Of a stretch of 64,000 nucleotides of DNA, positions 16,648-27,387 are shown piece after piece (position 1 is the first letter of the stretch; the number at the start of each line of letters is the position of its first letter). The position numbers were made by a program, and so were the translations under genes. The stretch comes from Prorocentrum cordatum. Taxonomy: Eukaryota. The notes beneath the pieces were generated by a model that worked only from the letters and a program-made list of their open reading frames with translations, had not been told where the DNA came from and did not search any database. Location: assembly GCA_963575745.1 (NCBI GenBank), contig CAUYUJ010000245.1, positions 1-64,000 on the forward strand. Direction: 5' to 3'.

Positions 16648-16783
16648 GGTCCCCCCCCCCTCGAGGGGACCCCCACCAAACCCCACGGCTAAGAGGAACC
16701 GCTCTCGTTGCCCCACTCCTCTTCCCCAATTAAGTTAAAGGACAAGAGTAGTGGTAAATGATGCAGAGGCTGGCGGCGGCAAA

Positions 16784-17496
16784 GAAAACATATGATTTCA
16801 TATGTTTTTCTGATTTTTCTCGTCTGGGACGCAGGAAAACGTGTGATTTCATTGGTTTTTCTGGTTTTTCTGGTCTGGGGGCAAGGAAAACATGTGATTT
16901 CATTGGTTTTTCTGGTTTTTCTGGTCTGGGAAGCAGGAAAATATGTGATTTCATTTGTTTTTCTGTTTTTTCTGGTCTGGGGGCAAGGAAAACCTGTGAT
17001 TTCATTGGTTTTTCTGGTTTTTCTGGTCTGGGGGGAAGGAAAACCTGTGATGTCATTGGTTTTTCTGGTTTTTCTGGTTTGGGAGCTAGATGTTACCAAA
17101 CCAGCCCGACCAAAACAACGATACCCTTCCCAGACCAGAAAAACCAGAAAAACCAATGACATCACAGGTTTTCCTTCCCCCCAGACCAGAAAAACCAGAA
17201 AACCAATGAAATCACAGGTTTTCTTTGCCCCCAGACCAGAAAAACCAGAAAAACCAATGAAATCACATGTTTTCCTGCTTCCCAGACCAGAAAAACCAGA
17301 GAAAACAATGAAATCATAGGTTTTCCTGCTTCCCAGACCAGAAAAATCAGAAAAACAAATGAAATCATATGTTTTCTTTGCCCCCAGACCAGAAAAACCA
17401 GAAAAACAAATGAAATCACAGGTTTTCCTGTTTCCCAGACCAGAAAAACCAGAAAAACCAATGAAATCACAGGTTTTCCTTGCCCCCAGACCAGAA
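16784..17496. repeat. Head-to-head inverted arrays of a 51-bp unit (6 forward, ~7 reverse)
   Basis: The unit GAAAACCTGTGATTTCATTGGTTTTTCTGGTTTTTCTGGTCTGGGGGCAAG starts at 16784, 16835, 16886, 16937, 16988 and 17039. Reverse-complement copies span ~17128-17496. Confidence 0.97.
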
Positions 17497-17636
17497 CCTC
17501 TGTCCGAGTTCTCTGCGAGGTTGTAACGGTAGTTCTCTCGCATTTGAGCGGCTTTGCGCCAGCGAGGAAGGGGCGAGGAAGATACGAGGAGAGACAGACA
17601 ACAGCGCCCCCGAACTACAGCTGACGGAAGAGAAGG

Positions 17637-17930
17637 AGGGGCGTAACGCTCCAGATCACCTTGGGGCGAAATGCTCCAGCCAGATGCGGGGCGAAATGCT
17701 CCAGGGGGCGGAATGCTCCAAATCACGTAGGGGCGAAATGCTCTAGCCAGATACGGGGCGAAATGCTCCAAGGGGCGTAATGCTCCAGATCACGTGGGGG
17801 CGAAATGCTCCAGATCACGCGGGGGCGAAATGCTCCAGCCAGATACGGGGCGAAATGCTCCAGGGGGCGTAAAGCTCACGCCAGTCGGAGGCAAAACAAT
17901 TCCAGGCCAACGAGAGACGAAATGCTCCAG
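17637..17930 (+). repeat. ~11-12 copies of the 17-bp motif GGGGCGAAATGCTCCAG (iteron-like)
   Basis: Copies at ~17637, 17663, 17688, 17705, 17730, 17755, 17772, 17797, 17822, 17847 and 17864, spaced about 17 or 25 bp apart. Confidence 0.9.
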
Positions 17931-18162
17931 GGGAGCGCAGCAATACTGTTTTATCCTTATCTTGGTCCTCCTCCACTTCCGCGGTTCGTCCCTCTGTCCT
18001 CCCCCGCCCCCTCTTATTATCCTCCAGTCTCCATCGCTCCCGCCTTCTCGCCCCTCCTTCCTCATCCACACCAACTCCTTTTGTTTGTTGCAACGCATTC
18101 TGGCCCGAGCCTGCCTCGACGCAGAACTCGCGGCGCAGCTTCCACGCACCCGCACGGCAGCA

Positions 18163-19476
18163 ATGCCGATGATGCTCCGCCTCGCCTCCTGGTGCGCCGC
18201 CAAAGCGCAACACCCCTTCCTCAACAAGCCCAACGCCGACATGACGGCGGCGGCGGAGCAGTGGGGCGTGGTGTGCGACGGGGTAAGCGGCGTCGCGCCC
18301 CGCTTTTTTTTTTTTTTTTTTTTTCTTTGTTTTTTTTTTTTTCTATTTTTTTTTTTTTTTTTTTATTTTTATTTTTTTTTTTTTTTTGTTTTTCTTTTTT
18401 TTTTTATCTTTTTTTTTTTTTTTCTTTTTTTATTTTTTTTTTTATTTTTTTTTTTTTTTTTTTTTTTTTTTTTTTTTTTTCTTTTTTTTTTTTTTTTTTT
18501 TTTTTTTTTTTTTTTTTTTTTTTTTTTTCTTTTTTTTTTTTTTTTTTTTTTTTTCAACCCGGAGGACCTTTCTTGGGACCTCCGGAACTGCCTCCGCTTC
18601 TTACTCCGCGAGCGGTTCCACTGGGCCTGTGACAAGCAGGAGTTCGACGCCCAGGTGGTCCGCGAGATCGGCGGGGATGTGCGGAGCATGGCCACGGACG
18701 CTCCTGCGGCGTGGGCAGCGAGGCTCCTGCAAACAAACATAATAGCACACGCACACGCCGACATTAAACAACAAGCATGACAGAAAGCCACAAGCTCACA
18801 ACAGCAGCCGTGCTTGATGAAAAACAAATCGTTACCGCTCTCCCTGTTTTCCTGGCCGCGACACCTTGGATTCTTTCGGTAAAACGGCCACTCAAACCAA
18901 ACCAGCAACGCACGCACACACCAAACACAACAACACAGTAATCACAAGCCGCAACAACATAAAACTGCGAGGCTCCTGCATCTCGCCATCCAGACCACTA
19001 CGCTGCACGGCTCCACCACGGTCGGCTTCTTTTCGGCGACCGGCACCAAGATGTCCTACTGCCACATCGGGGACGTATCCATCCAGGTGTGGCGCAGGTC
19101 GGCCCTCACGGGAAGCTACACGCGCTGCTTCATCACCAGAGACCACCACGTCCGCATCGCCACGGAGTCAGGCGAGGTGATGGGCCCGAAGCAGGTTTCG
19201 TTTTTCCCTGGCGTGAACAGGGCGGGCGACGACTTGGAGCGCTCCGTGGCGCAGGCCGACTACGGCGTTGTCCAATTGAGCAAGGGCGACATCATTATAT
19301 GCTGTTCCGACGGCATCACTGACAACGTCCCGTACGATGCCATGAAGTTCGTGCTCACGCGCGCAGATTCCGACGCGCAGGCCGCGGCCGAGCAGATGAT
19401 CGAGTGCGCGCAGATGCGCAGCGCGCCCAAGCCCGACGACATCTCGATCGTAATCGGCGTCGTCGGGGCTGTGTGA
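18163..19476 (+). CDS. PTC7-like PP2C (PPM) protein phosphatase; predicted intron 18723-18971; poly(T) tract 18304-18554
   Basis: PPM motifs occur in order: NAD, GVVCDGVSG, HGSTT, HIGD, DIIICCSDGITDNV, KPDDISIVI. Removing the GC..AG intron joins ARLL to HLAIQTTTLHGSTT in frame. Confidence 0.8.
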
Positions 19477-24869: not shown

Positions 24870-25593
24870 GCCAGGCGCCATTGCCCGCCGCGGAGGCGGC
24901 GCGAGTTGGGCGGAGGGAGAGGGGGGGGGAGGGCGGGGGCATGGACGTGTAGATGGGGAGGGGGCGCGGAGATTGACATTTCAGTTTCATGGCCAATGCG
25001 ACGCATTGGGGCGGGGCTGGCATCCAGCAATCACGGCATCCCACGCCGATCACGTGCGGCGTGCTGAAACGCCTCGCCCAATCGTCATCTCCGCCTTCTT
25101 CGCTTCCGCCGTCGCCATTGCCATCGTCGTCGTCGCCCTCTCGTCACCCGCTGCTGATGCCAGGGTCATCGCCGTTTGGGGCCAGGGAACTGTGCAGCCC
25201 GCCCTGTCACCCCTCGCTCATCGTTCCCGCGTCACCGCTTCGCTCCTCCTCCTCTTGTCCATCGCCGCCCTCCTCACATATCCTCTCCTGCGCTCGGCGA
25301 GACCTGTCTCTCTGAGGAGGCATTGACATGTTCGTGATATTAGCGTGTCAGTTAGCGCATCGAGCTGTTCACATGTTCTATAAGTTCTATAACATCCGAA
25401 AGCGAAGGCCAGCCGTCGCAACTCGCATGTTGAATCCAGCTGCACCCGTGCATCCTTGCCTCTGCTGCCCACCTTTAGCCAGCCATGGCCCAAAGCCGTT
25501 AGCATCCATCTTCTCCTACTGCAGAGCATCAGTTTCTCTGAGGATGCATTGCGCTGTTCGTGGCGGGGGCGCGCCGCAGCCCGCTCCGTCGTT

Positions 25594-25612
25594 GCCGTAG
25601 CCGTTCTGGCTC
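25594..25612 (+). promoter_or_regulatory. Relic spliced leader upstream of the transposase
   Basis: GCCGTAGCCGTTCTGGCTC matches the leader at 17/19. Confidence 0.75.
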
Positions 25613-25685
25613 CTTGCAGGCCCCGCAAGGCTGGGATCTAGTCCGAACCCAATATACTAGTGGAGGCGCGGCGTAGGCGAGCCCC

Positions 25686-27206
25686 ATGGCCAAGACCTGC
25701 ATGAACCAGCGCAAGCCCAAGAGGGGAACCCTGCGCCTGACCAAGCGCGCCGCCCAGAAGAAGCCGGTTCAGAGGAAGCCCGCGGCTGCAGGCGTCAAGT
25801 ACACGCCTGATGCACAGAACACCTCGGCGTCGGAGCCTCGGTACAATCGGCAGACGCTGGACGCCGTCCTGCTGGACATGGTGGATTTCACGCCGAAGCA
25901 GCTCATTCTGAAGTTGCGGAAGATGGGTTTCCTCCCCGACGTGCATCACTGCATGAAGTGCGGGTCGAAGACGTGGAAGACTGCGGACAAGGCGTGCGCC
26001 CCTGTCTTGGGCGGGGGCGAGCACGAGTGGCGGTGCACCAAGAAGGCGTGCCGATTCAAGCAGCACGTGCTCACGCAGTCGCCGCTCTTCAGCGCTGGGA
26101 GGGGCCCCAGCTCCACGCCCCTTCGCAAGCAGGCGCGCAGGGGAAACGTTCTCGCACCAAGCAACTTTTCCTTTTTCAAGCCAGAACGCAGGGCGCAGCC
26201 ATGACTGCATTCTGGGTCGGGGAACCTTTCGGGCAGGGGAAAAGGGCCCAGGGATGGAGTTGCTCTTTGTTCGGTGTGTAGTCGTCGGTTCGAGCATGGT
26301 GTTCGGGTTTTTCCCAGATCAGCATGCTCGATGTCGGTTCTCCCCGCGTGTCTTGGCCCCCTCCCTTGAAAGGTGGTGGTCTTGCACGGAATTGCCTGGA
26401 ACGTGAAGCCCCACGTGATCCGTGCCCAGACTGGTCTGACAGCGAACCGCATTGAGACGGTGCAAGCGAGCTGGCGGAACTTGCTGAAGGACTTCGTCAT
26501 CCACGTCCAGCGGAAGCTCAAGGCTGGCGGCAACGGCGTGATCGTCGAGGCGGACGAGGCTGTGCTGAGGAAGGAATCGATCGACGACTCCTCGGTGAAG
26601 TGGGCTGGCGTGGTCGGCGTGAAGGCGCGGGGGCAACGCCAGAGCCTAGCCCTCGTCCAGACGACTGCGACCTCGAAGCGGCGCGCCGCCAAGGGGCGCG
26701 CGGCGCCCATGAAGCGCCCAGCCGCCGCTGCCAAGAAGCCCGCCGCGGTCATCAGGCGGCCGTCTGCTGCCACGAGAAAGCCAGCTGGCCGTTTGGGGTG
26801 GGCTTGTCCCCCGCCTTTGGACAACGAGACGTGGGGCGAGGTGGCGAGCAACCACTTTGCCAAGGAGTCCATCTTGTCCACGGACGGCGCTCTGGCGTAC
26901 AAGGCCGTGGACGTCGGCGAGAAGGCCAAGATCGCGGTTAATCACTCCTCCAAGAACGGCGGGCCTTACTTCACAAAGGAGACGGAGGTCGACGGCAAGG
27001 GCGTCGTCGCTGGCACGCAGTCGTTGGACAGCATATGGGGCCACTTGAAGAAGAAGCTCGTGGGCATCAACGCCAACAAGCCGCAGGCGATTGCGCGGGC
27101 GCTGCGCGAGGGGCAGTGGTGCCATTGGATCGGCGTGGAGGACAGGTTCAAGGCCATGGGGGACGTGATCAAGTTTTGCCGCGACAACAAGATCTTCAAG
27201 GCGTGA
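25686..27206 (+). CDS. Merlin/IS1595-family transposase, 426 aa; exons 25686-26132 and 26373-27206
   Basis: N-terminal Zn ribbon CMKC...WRCTKKAC, then GVIVEADE (D 26553), ILSTDGALAY (D 26883), VNHS, and GTQSLDSIWGHLKK (D 27027). The phase-0 AG|GC..AG|G intron (26133-26372) joins the two ORFs without stops. Confidence 0.88.
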
Positions 27207-27387
27207 AGGTCTACATGAGTACACTTGATGGTGTACAGGGGGCCGTGCGCGCGGGGGCGCGTGCAGCATGGGGTTCCGATTGCATTGTTAAAAATTGTGT
27301 AAATTTCGGTGTAGGAAAACATTGGTTTCGATACGGTATTTCCCATATAGAATGGTCGTCGGGGGTCCCCCTGAGGGGGGGGTGGGC

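Follow-up and report, generated by a model that had tools for sequence, protein, structure and literature searches.

Why should a transposon of the Merlin/IS1595 type carry a gene resembling the initiator-helicase genes of small DNA viruses? The question is raised by a 64,000-nucleotide stretch of the Prorocentrum cordatum genome (contig CAUYUJ010000245.1, positions 1 to 64,000; hereafter the window), which holds one copy of a 10,740 bp element at positions 16648–27387. All genes of the element lie on the + strand, and they include a small PP2C-type phosphatase gene, a gene for a protein that we call Rep-like, and a transposase gene, TnpB. Our analysis indicates that the element belongs to a multi-copy DNA-transposon family of a P. 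cordatum-like dinoflagellate, and that the family is defined by two genes on the same strand, a Rep-like gene and an IS1595/Merlin transposase gene; this sub-lineage adds the small PP2C gene upstream of the Rep-like gene. We are highly confident of the element and of the identities of its genes. For the whole reading, which includes a functional role of the Rep-like partner, we put the chances at about even.

We analysed the ends of the element and its target site. The terminal inverted repeats (TIRs) are 27 bp long and agree at 22 of the 27 positions, which confirms what the preliminary description of this DNA had stated. The 20-mer core of the repeat, CCCCCCTCGAGGGGACCCCC, has only two sites in the 64-kb window at up to three mismatches, one at each end (16655–16674 on the + strand and 27361–27380 on the − strand), where 0.01 occurrences would be expected; two or more matches were obtained in 0 of 100 shuffles. 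Both TIRs contain a short palindrome of their own in a C/G-rich run (CCCCTCGAGGGG in the left, CCCCCTGAGGGGG in the right), so that a hairpin could form at each end of the element. Neither tblastn nor blastn found further copies or fragments in the window outside 16648–27387. The flanking duplication noted before is present, as the 8-mer TACGACTA stands at both sides of the element and is compatible with an 8-bp target-site duplication (TSD). Taken alone, however, the pair is weak evidence, because both copies lie inside a microsatellite: the two flanks are one (TAC)n array (15182–16647 on the left and 27387–27489 on the right), in which TACGACTA accounts for 15 of the 1459 8-mers on the left and 3 of the 95 on the right, and a random 8-mer from the left array equals a random one from the right with a probability of 0.077.

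The transposase gene consists of two exons separated by a 240-nt intron (26133–26372), which has GC..AG ends and in-frame stops. Exon 1 encodes a basic N-terminus followed by a CxxC...C..C zinc-ribbon-like motif, a region in which Pfam Zn_Tnp_IS1595 gave no match; exon 2 contains the motifs VEADEA, STDGA and GTQSLD..W..LKK. The gene models P0188 and P0190 are 99–100% identical to the window transposase, and P0190 bears the UniRef name ‘ISXO2-like transposase domain-containing protein'. The proposed affiliation with Merlin/IS1595 was borne out by profile hidden Markov models (HMMs). NCBIfam NF033547 (IS1595, cut-off 75 bits) matched P0020, which is 98% identical to the window protein, at E 4.7e-9, P0190 at 3.3e-8, P0021 at 1.4e-11 and P0022 at 1.2e-8, and Pfam DDE_Tnp_IS1595 (PF12762) matched the transposase and its relatives at E 1.2e-4 to 3e-4 (for the window frame 26370–27206, E 1.3e-4 and 22.5 bits at a cut-off of 27). 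In an alignment of seven rows two residue pairs were invariant, ‘DE' in VEADE and ‘TQ' in GTQxLD; the D of xTDG was present in all six rows other than the metagenome locus L003, and the D of GTQxLD was present in six of the seven, being R in L003. The motifs conserved in the dinoflagellate transposases, as aligned without a reference Merlin sequence, can be written VEA-D-E, xT-D-G and GTQxL-D..W..LK(K/R). The third catalytic residue appears to be D and not E, as judged by eye against HSNDIESEFNRFKR of the L003 transposase. By the criteria of PMC8101967, given below, the transposase is a divergent member of the Merlin/IS1595 superfamily.

We modelled the structure of the Rep-like protein. The AlphaFold model of residues 1–582 (model 1, pLDDT, the predicted local distance difference test, 72.7 overall and ~70–90 in the N-terminal fold region) gave nine matches at E<=1e-3 when compared with viral models by Foldseek; among the 50 matches listed, all 16 that carried a name were Rep proteins of CRESS-DNA viruses. 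Against solved structures, all eight VIA-align matches lying within residues 24–211 were Rep nuclease domains or the origin-binding domains (OBDs) of E1 and large T. These included circovirus 7kii (Z 5.3, 94/103 residues aligned, root-mean-square deviation (rmsd) 3.3), nanovirus 6h8o (Z 5.3, 89/95), PCV2 2hw0 (Z 5.1), 8h56 (Z 5.0), the E1 DNA-binding domain 1ksy (Z 5.0), the SV40 OBD 1tbd (Z 4.4) and also Vientovirus Rep; these Z values are modest. The preliminary description had missed this N-terminal domain, which is predicted to have the HUH fold and, as shown below, lacks its catalytic motifs.

The helical bundle and the ATPase part were predicted with confidence. Model 2 (residues 215–560, 70 sequences, pLDDT 95.4, predicted template-modelling score 0.90) consists of a three-helix bundle, a P-loop core, a beta-hairpin before the strand with a conserved Asn, and two long C-terminal helices. 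The hairpin, formed by model strands 193–198 and 201–206 (protein residues 407–420), lies just before the strand that ends in N430 and carries R413, K418 and R421. The top Foldseek matches of model 2 were MCM4 (E 5e-4), BrxL, norovirus NS3 and B19V NS1 (E 5e-4 to 3e-3), followed by MCM, ComM, E1, PCV2 Rep and AAV Rep, all of which we take to be AAA+ proteins with a hairpin before sensor 1. Helicases of superfamily 3 (SF3) scored Z 7.5–8.2 in VIA-align: AAV2 Rep68 8.2 (166 residues aligned, rmsd 4.0), EMCV 2C 8.1 (19% identity), B19V NS1 8.0, the PCV2 Rep ATPase 7.8 (130/142) and E1 7.6. A feature search of the ESM Atlas pointed in the same direction, the nearest named clusters being Rep_OBD + RNA_helicase, Viral_Rep or Gemini_AL1 (scores 0.92–0.94, with 188–208 of 256 features in common). 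Across 61 sequences of 20–52% identity, G324, G329, K330, D385, D386, R425 and N430 are conserved in at least 90%. R413 and R483 show no variation there, nor do K418 and R421 within the set of 19 closer sequences. On the model, R413–R425 would correspond to the B' hairpin, N430 to motif C and R483 to the arginine finger.

The Rep-like family proved to be large, and its members are repeatedly joined to transposases. A first search recovered 19 relatives at E<=1e-3, 14 of them from P. cordatum, and a profile search of public genomes and metagenomes yielded, at 50% identity, 1326 clusters, of which 752 have E<=1e-10 and 235 have E<=1e-30; in 21 of 24 clusters tested there was no Pfam match at E<=0.01. 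In IMG/VR viral contigs there were 58 pattern matches, but no relative was among them. The window Rep is 98% identical to P0200, whose 90% cluster comprises 12 P. cordatum proteins from 12 contigs, and the 90% cluster of TnpB comprises three P. cordatum proteins from three contigs. When 56 proteins of at least 700 aa were compared with reference modules, Rep and an IS1595-type transposase were found together in 16 P. cordatum gene models. Eleven of these, on 11 different contigs, have a Rep 94–100% identical to P0200 followed by the tail and by a transposase of another lineage, TnpA. In P0001 the Rep (64%) is followed by a TnpA-like transposase, in P0231 (53%) by a third type, TnpC, and in P0202 and P0219 a TnpC-like part precedes the Rep (35%); the remaining model, P0201, is fragmentary. 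An alignment of the 19 sequences also led to four metagenome loci, and in both of the two with enough downstream sequence a transposase lies behind the Rep-like open reading frame (ORF). In L001 (Rep 43%) an ORF 225 bp downstream matches the N-terminal half of the P0021 transposase (E 5e-21), and in L003 (Rep 26%) the next ORF matches NCBIfam IS1595 (E 1.8e-8). The two genes thus stay together at Rep identities between 98% and 26%, with three or more transposase lineages, and the ATPase motifs are conserved, which argues that the Rep-like protein is probably an integral functional partner of the transposase and not cargo.

Some further members of the family are of interest in their own right. 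P0208 (2597 aa, P. cordatum) contains two complete Rep-tail-TnpA units in tandem, which may be tandem or nested copies. P0114 (1387 aa, from a Logan/ENA contig of 5271 nt) combines a Rep-like part (residues 25–479) with a KDZ (Kyakuja-Dileera-Zisupton) transposase domain (1184–1316; E 1.3e-5, 25.4 bits, just under the cut-off of 26.6); the Rep-like partner may, judging from this protein, also travel with another transposase superfamily. Three EukProt entries labelled as the green alga Pyramimonas sp. CCMP1952 (P0214, P0220 and P0234) are fragments at least 90% identical to P. cordatum Rep-like proteins, and a fourth EukProt entry, P0191, which has no name, is a fragment at least 90% identical to the transposase; all four are probably contamination or mislabelling. 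Should the data set be a transcriptome, this would hint at expression of the genes. In UniRef, P0200, P0207 and P0210 are called ‘RNA helicase', and other fused paralogues have received the names of unrelated neighbours (Calmodulin, Inorganic diphosphatase, NOP53). Public-proteome annotation of these transposon genes is unreliable.

The phosphatase gene was also borne out. Its exons were set by tblastn of the paralogue model P0209, which is 95–100% identical; a 251-bp poly-T tract (18304–18554) is the first intron according to this model, since the P0209 exons flank the tract. The frame 18883–19476, which holds the last exon, matched NCBIfam Stp1_PP2C at E 2.7e-11 (43.4 bits, cut-off 230), Pfam SpoIIE at E 2e-5 (25.0 bits, cut-off 25) and PP2C_2 at 0.0021, and its translation contains DGVSG, SDGITD and DDISIV, which we take as equivalent to the PPM phosphatase motifs. 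PP2C, Rep and transposase occur together in two other models, P0209 (Rep 98%) and P0001 (64%), with PP2C preceding Rep in both. Cargo is as likely as function for this gene. Thus the co-occurrence of these genes in other copies, on which the preliminary description had made its proposal depend, was found for Rep and transposase in the 16 models and two metagenome contigs, and for PP2C in the two models.

Comparison with the sister copies revealed a feature of the present one that had been missed. The near-identical sister models continue past ~24866 into TnpA, whereas TnpA has no match in the window, P0200-type models being unmatched beyond about residue 903; the window TnpB is 24% identical to the sisters' TnpA. 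As its near-identical sisters carry a different transposase lineage, this copy is, on the sequence comparison, a recombinant, in which the left 8.5 kb are ~98–99% like the TnpA-carrying sisters and the right 2 kb are of the TnpB lineage. In this lineage TnpB may have taken the place of TnpA, or TnpA that of TnpB. That the recombinant copy moved as one unit seems to us reasonably probable.

Several observations weigh against the reading of the element as a transposon with a functional, initiator-like partner. The putative TSD sits in a microsatellite (P ~0.08), and one copy with its flanks was compared. As the copy is recombinant, its two TIRs (22/27) could stem from two parent elements, and possibly it has never moved as one unit. 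In P. cordatum the linkage is seen in fused gene models, which show same-strand adjacency and not common function. All scores of the family HMMs are under the curated cut-offs, though their E-values are significant. No Pfam or NCBIfam family matched the Rep-like protein of the window (0 and 0; Pfam at E<=0.1). Its single sequence had no match in the PDB at E<=1, the 19-sequence profile matched only two ribosomal entries at chance level, and the 61-sequence profile only the Walker-A neighbourhood of AAA+ proteins. Among the 61 members the Pfam SF3 families gave weak matches only (Parvo_NS1 in 2/61, best 0.0099; RNA_helicase in 2/61, best 0.096). PilT/DotB/GspE and BchI are equally similar to the modelled ATPase core (Z 8.2–8.7), so the predicted fold alone would not single out SF3. 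Finally, the N-terminal domain has neither a conserved His-hydrophobic-His/Gln motif for metal binding nor a conserved catalytic Tyr-x-x-Lys in 60 sequences; the nearest HUH candidate is K153 (54/60) with H154 (38/60; W in the window), and Y116 is present in 37/60. Since both motifs are absent, the Rep-like protein, to judge from its sequence, cannot nick DNA like a true Rep, and its predicted architecture, an origin-binding fold with an SF3-type motor and no nickase, is closer to that of E1 and large T than to that of an active Rep. The helicase of the preliminary description resembles a Rep of the CRESS/parvovirus type in its predicted fold and its protein-language-model features, a likeness that no sequence HMM shows.

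How might such an element work? By analogy with its family, the transposase would bind the 27-bp TIRs, excise the element and insert it with an 8-bp duplication, here into the (TAC)n microsatellite. The Rep-like protein would act like the E1 and large-T initiators, binding repeated sites through its OBD-fold domain, assembling into a ring and unwinding DNA. A candidate binding platform would be the inverted 51-bp arrays at 16775–17496, which correspond to the ‘origin-like arm' of the preliminary description, and unwinding would add to DDE integration a step in which the DNA is replicated or opened. We propose this initiator-like mechanism tentatively, and consider its chances somewhat below even. 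A bolder version, which we regard as rather unlikely, is that these elements are undescribed, ancient and widespread eukaryotic ‘transposon-replicons' that combine Merlin/IS1595 (occasionally KDZ) integration with an E1/large-T-like initiator replicating from a repeat-array origin. The Rep-like protein would then derive from a CRESS or plasmid Rep that lost its nickase, and the excised or the resident element would replicate.

The strongest alternative to the initiator-like mechanism, though an unlikely one in our estimate, is that the Rep-like protein assists plain cut-and-paste transposition as an AAA+ helper that captures the target or controls the transpososome, similar to IstB, TnsC or MuB. 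A DDE transposase with a neighbouring AAA+ ATPase gene is an established pattern in bacteria, and IstB/DnaC proteins are among the structural matches of the Rep-like protein (8q3w, Z 7.4; 5bq5, Z 7.4; 3ec2, Z 7.7). The position of the Rep-like gene directly upstream of the transposase across deep divergence would suit a helper as well, and the combination with a KDZ transposase in P0114 fits a general helper of transposition. However, a Rep-nuclease/OBD fold at the N-terminus followed by a helical bundle is the architecture of viral initiators and not that of IstB, TnsC or MuB. Furthermore, the basic residues R413, K418, R421 and R425 of the predicted hairpin are conserved, and a basic hairpin before sensor 1 is typical of DNA-translocating motors of the SF3/MCM type.

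It is also possible, if improbable, that the locus is not one mobile unit at all, a TnpA-type left part and a TnpB-type right part having been joined by recombination or deletion, or nested, with TACGACTA a coincidence. We compared contigs of four sequencing runs (X1–X4) with positions 20900–27700 of the window. Consistent with a join, contigs of the sister copies diverge from the window within 25187–25408, and others leave it at 27048 and 27098; the distance between the two transposases (24% identity), the imperfect TIRs and the ~8% chance of the apparent TSD fit this explanation as well. Each of the four runs has contigs over the Rep region with ~1% difference to the window, and in X1 (11 differences in 994 letters) their summed depth is 30–47, as compared with ~9, at 0 differences, over the TnpB body (25379–27077). 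Summed contig depth is a poor measure of copy number, though in X1 it agrees with the cluster counts of 12 Rep and 3 TnpB proteins. The last 280 bp (27098–27377, including the C-terminus of TnpB), in contrast, have a depth of 38 in X1, like the Rep region, which suggests a common end and not a one-off. In addition, record 13 of X2 (25158–25339, 0 differences) crosses 25187 with 30 letters on the left, one short of the threshold for bridging, a TnpB-like transposase is linked to a Rep-like gene elsewhere (L001), and the same microsatellite is found at both flanks, as expected of a single insertion. The TnpB region had little or no contig cover in X2–X4, and the right flank (27483–27700) had none in X1, X2 and X4. 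We noted that the 36-nt segment 25373–25408 is bordered on both sides by GCCACCAAACACTGCT-like sequence in other contigs (with loose ends in runs X1 and X2), and seems to be part of a separate family of short tandem repeats.

It is quite improbable that the Rep-like gene and PP2C ride as cargo without a role in mobility, the former captured from a CRESS-like virus or a plasmid that had integrated and the latter from the host. For the phosphatase such a view has some appeal, because it is found in only two other models of one sub-lineage (P0209 and P0001) and with no other Rep subfamily, and the Rep-like protein has lost the HUH and Tyr motifs, as have many endogenised viral genes. But the adjacency of Rep-like gene and transposase persists over the range of identities given above with TnpA, TnpB/P0021-like and TnpC transposases, and the conservation of the ATPase motifs in the 61 sequences, in a family of 1326 clusters, speaks for an active protein that has long been under selection within these elements. 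That the arrangement was created by assembly across microsatellites, poly-T and tandem arrays is extremely improbable: long simple repeats do border and interrupt the element, and short-read contigs break at 24240–24393 and 27378–27498, with cuts at the (AG)n and (CTA)n tracts, but the PP2C-Rep-tail order recurs at 95–100% identity on another contig (P0209), Rep is joined to a transposase in 16 models, and contigs of the four runs reproduce the internal sequence, with X1 giving the TnpB gene at 0 differences.

Table 1. Features of the element and of its borders (window positions unless residues are stated).
Feature	Position	Strand	Remarks
Putative 8-bp TSD TACGACTA, left copy	16640-16647		in (TAC)n array
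Left TIR	16648-16674	+	begins 5'-GG; palindrome CCCCTCGAGGGG inside; 22/27 vs right end
Two arrays of a 51-bp repeat, mutually inverted	16784-17085 (5.9 copies) and 17129-17496 (7.2 copies)		88% matches
Short tandem repeats, periods 17/25/42/67/92	17638-17930		upstream of PP2C gene
Small PP2C-type phosphatase gene	18163-19476	+	exons ~18163-18303, 18553-18741, 18967-19476
Tandem array, 153 bp x 6.8	19676-20729		between PP2C and Rep-like genes; 91% matches
Putative spliced-leader relic	20972-20987	+	exact 16-nt match to 3' part of dinoflagellate spliced leader; 68 nt upstream of Rep-like ATG
Rep-like gene, core exon	21056-22810	+	single open frame, 585 codons
Rep-like domains (predicted)	residues ~79-207; 223-285; ~290-560		HUH-endonuclease/origin-binding fold; helical bundle; AAA+ ATPase
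Rep-like key residues (predicted roles)	residues G324-K330; D385/D386; R413-R425; N430; R483		Walker A; Walker B; hairpin; sensor-1; R483
58 bp present here, absent from commoner copies of runs X1 and X3	22885-22942		skip 22884->22943, ends CC..CA
Rep-like conserved C-terminal tail	23031-23522	+	acidic-FGxGG motif, then I/VDLxSPSP motif
ORF of the doubtful fourth gene	23758-24396	+	overlaps (AG)65 at 24254-24383
Two short exons of paralogue models	24441-24587 and 24786-24866	+	100% identical; last protein-level stretches in common with TnpA-type sisters
Junction zone	25187-25408		loose ends of other copies' contigs at 25187, 25373, 25376, 25406, 25408; TnpB module to the right
Degenerate spliced-leader-like relic	25595-25612	+	16/18; ~75 nt upstream of transposase ATG
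IS1595/Merlin-type transposase gene TnpB	25686-27206	+	exon 1 25686-26132; exon 2 26373-27206
Right TIR	27361-27387	-	reverse complement begins GC; palindrome CCCCCTGAGGGGG inside
Putative TSD TACGACTA, right copy	27388-27395		in (TAC)n array

The preliminary description had taken the transposase and helicase frames to be intact. This holds for the open core of the Rep-like gene and for the catalytic acidic residues of the transposase, which are conserved, but the tail of Rep and the transposase both need introns. The tail of the Rep-like gene lies in a frame other than that of the core and is reached through a predicted GC..AG intron (22811–23030), which is used in paralogue models; it is 97–98% identical to the tail of P0200-type models and 68% to that of P0001. 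The contigs without the 58 bp at 22885–22942 have depths of 29.6 and 9.25, and without these 58 bp, by frame arithmetic, the core frame continues directly into the frame of the tail. The indel overlaps a 23-bp tandem duplication (22904–22947). We rejected the 58-nt skip as an intron, as its ends are CC..CA and it is missing also in DNA-like contigs of X1; these look like DNA because part of the transposase intron is kept (record 6, 26184–27077).

Of the four co-oriented genes proposed originally, PP2C, the Rep-like gene and the transposase are present on the + strand, and the fourth (23758–24396) appears doubtful: its ORF overlaps the (AG)65 tract, only a part of it (23941–24189) serves as an exon in paralogue gene models, and tblastn found no match to it in the 64%-identical copy P0001.

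The non-coding parts of the element are rich in repeats. The two 51-bp arrays together form a palindrome of ~720 bp (16775–17496), the arms of which are up to 298 nt long and 88% complementary. The metagenome contig of L003 has inverted repeats of 43–84 nt near its 3' end (4813–5153), recalling this arm, and begins with a (TCATGGGT)n microsatellite. Relics of a spliced leader (SL), which we take to be the dinoflagellate SL, lie upstream of the ATGs of both the Rep-like gene and the transposase; for the one at 25595, 0.05 matches would be expected in the window at <=3 mismatches. Their location suggests that the genes of the element may be expressed as separate trans-spliced mRNAs that are partly recycled through cDNA. 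The relic at 25595 might also mark the transposase module as a retro-copied mRNA, a possibility that we did not adopt as the gene has a 240-nt intron. A weaker SL-like relic (15/18) lies outside the element on the + strand (36842–36862). In L003 the same motif, TGTAGACATTTTG, which resembles a variant SL, stands upstream of both the Rep-like and the transposase ORFs (129–148 and 2526–2545).

In the open literature (Repbase reports, closed journals and supplements being outside its scope), our searches turned up no Merlin/IS1595 transposon described as having an SF3/Rep-like gene, and the words ‘Merlin' and ‘transposase' have 0 occurrences in the P. cordatum genome paper. If the reading given here is true, the stable pairing of a transposase with a virus-type initiator helicase would be a new architecture in the eukaryotic mobilome, and such a lineage would bear on the debated links among transposons, plasmids and small DNA viruses. 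As transposon-replicons, the elements would stand midway between transposons of the cut-and-paste kind and plasmids or small DNA viruses, and would have a major share, so far unrecognised, in the huge size of dinoflagellate genomes. That near-identical elements have exchanged transposase lineages shows modular evolution in action. The Rep-like family is large, unnamed and without a Pfam model; in P. cordatum its genes currently appear as ‘unnamed protein products' within fused models of 1300 aa, some of them labelled ‘RNA helicase', and naming the family would improve the annotation of dinoflagellate genomes. The chromosomes of dinoflagellates are permanently condensed and are described as being without ordinary nucleosomal packaging. 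The family offers a testable system for the questions of whether an SF3-type motor can serve a DDE transposon and whether it helps transposition in such chromosomes.

Merlin/IS1595 elements are characterized, in PMC8101967, by an IS1595 DDE domain, TIRs of 24–462 bp with 5'-GG, 8–9-bp TSDs and a single gene. Merlin-related sequences are reported there in five of seven dinoflagellate genomes; in dinoflagellates the transposase by itself is therefore no novelty. Our element resembles this group in the DDE_Tnp_IS1595 domain, a TIR length within the range, the 5'-GG of the left end, though the right end begins GC, and the putative 8-bp flanking duplication, weak as this is within a microsatellite, and differs from the single-gene organization given there in having a constant Rep-like partner and PP2C in addition. 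It also differs in its length of 10.7 kb, in the third catalytic position, which is apparently D (GTQxLD) and not E, and in the CxxC...C..C motif at the N-terminus of its transposase, as Merlin/IS1016 is said to be without a zinc finger. With HMM scores below the curated cut-offs, the transposase would represent a divergent branch of Merlin/IS1595.

With the Reps of CRESS viruses and parvoviruses, E1 and large T, the Rep-like protein shares, in its predicted structure, the succession of a Rep-nuclease/OBD fold, then a helical bundle and then an AAA+ ATPase that has a hairpin before sensor 1, together with Walker A and B, the sensor Asn and a conserved Arg; with E1 and large T it shares the fold without the HUH/Tyr nicking residues. 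Unlike these viral proteins, to which it has no significant sequence similarity, it has a longer spacing of motifs, with a helical insertion between N430 and R483, and a long conserved C-terminal tail, and it is encoded in a TIR transposon beside a DDE transposase, with no capsid gene. Helitrons are eukaryotic transposons in which a Rep-type protein is fused to a helicase. Their RepHel combines an active HUH nuclease with a superfamily 1 (Pif1-like) helicase and is found without DDE transposase, TIRs or TSD, whereas our element has lost HUH and has an AAA+/SF3-like ATPase, a DDE transposase and TIRs. Polintons/Mavericks and casposons couple an integrase or transposase with a replication protein of their own. 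In their case this is a DNA polymerase (pPolB/PolB) beside an rve integrase or Cas1, and the present element, which has no polymerase, carries only an initiator-like helicase.

The closest parallels, besides Helitrons, are AcademH and the bacterial pairs of a DDE transposase with an AAA+ ATPase. The helicase of AcademH is, to our knowledge, not of the SF3/Rep type. AcademH is, according to passages that cite its description (PMC10045372), likewise a eukaryotic DDE transposon with a lineage-defining helicase gene, but it belongs to a different transposase superfamily and has TSDs of 9–10 bp. Like IS21 (IstA/IstB), Tn7 (TnsB/TnsC) and Mu (MuA/MuB), our element pairs a DDE transposase with an adjacent AAA+ ATPase, and IstB is a structural match (Z 7.4). 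Unlike the bacterial IstB, TnsC and MuB, which are without a Rep/OBD-fold N-terminal domain, the Rep-like protein is predicted to have this domain.

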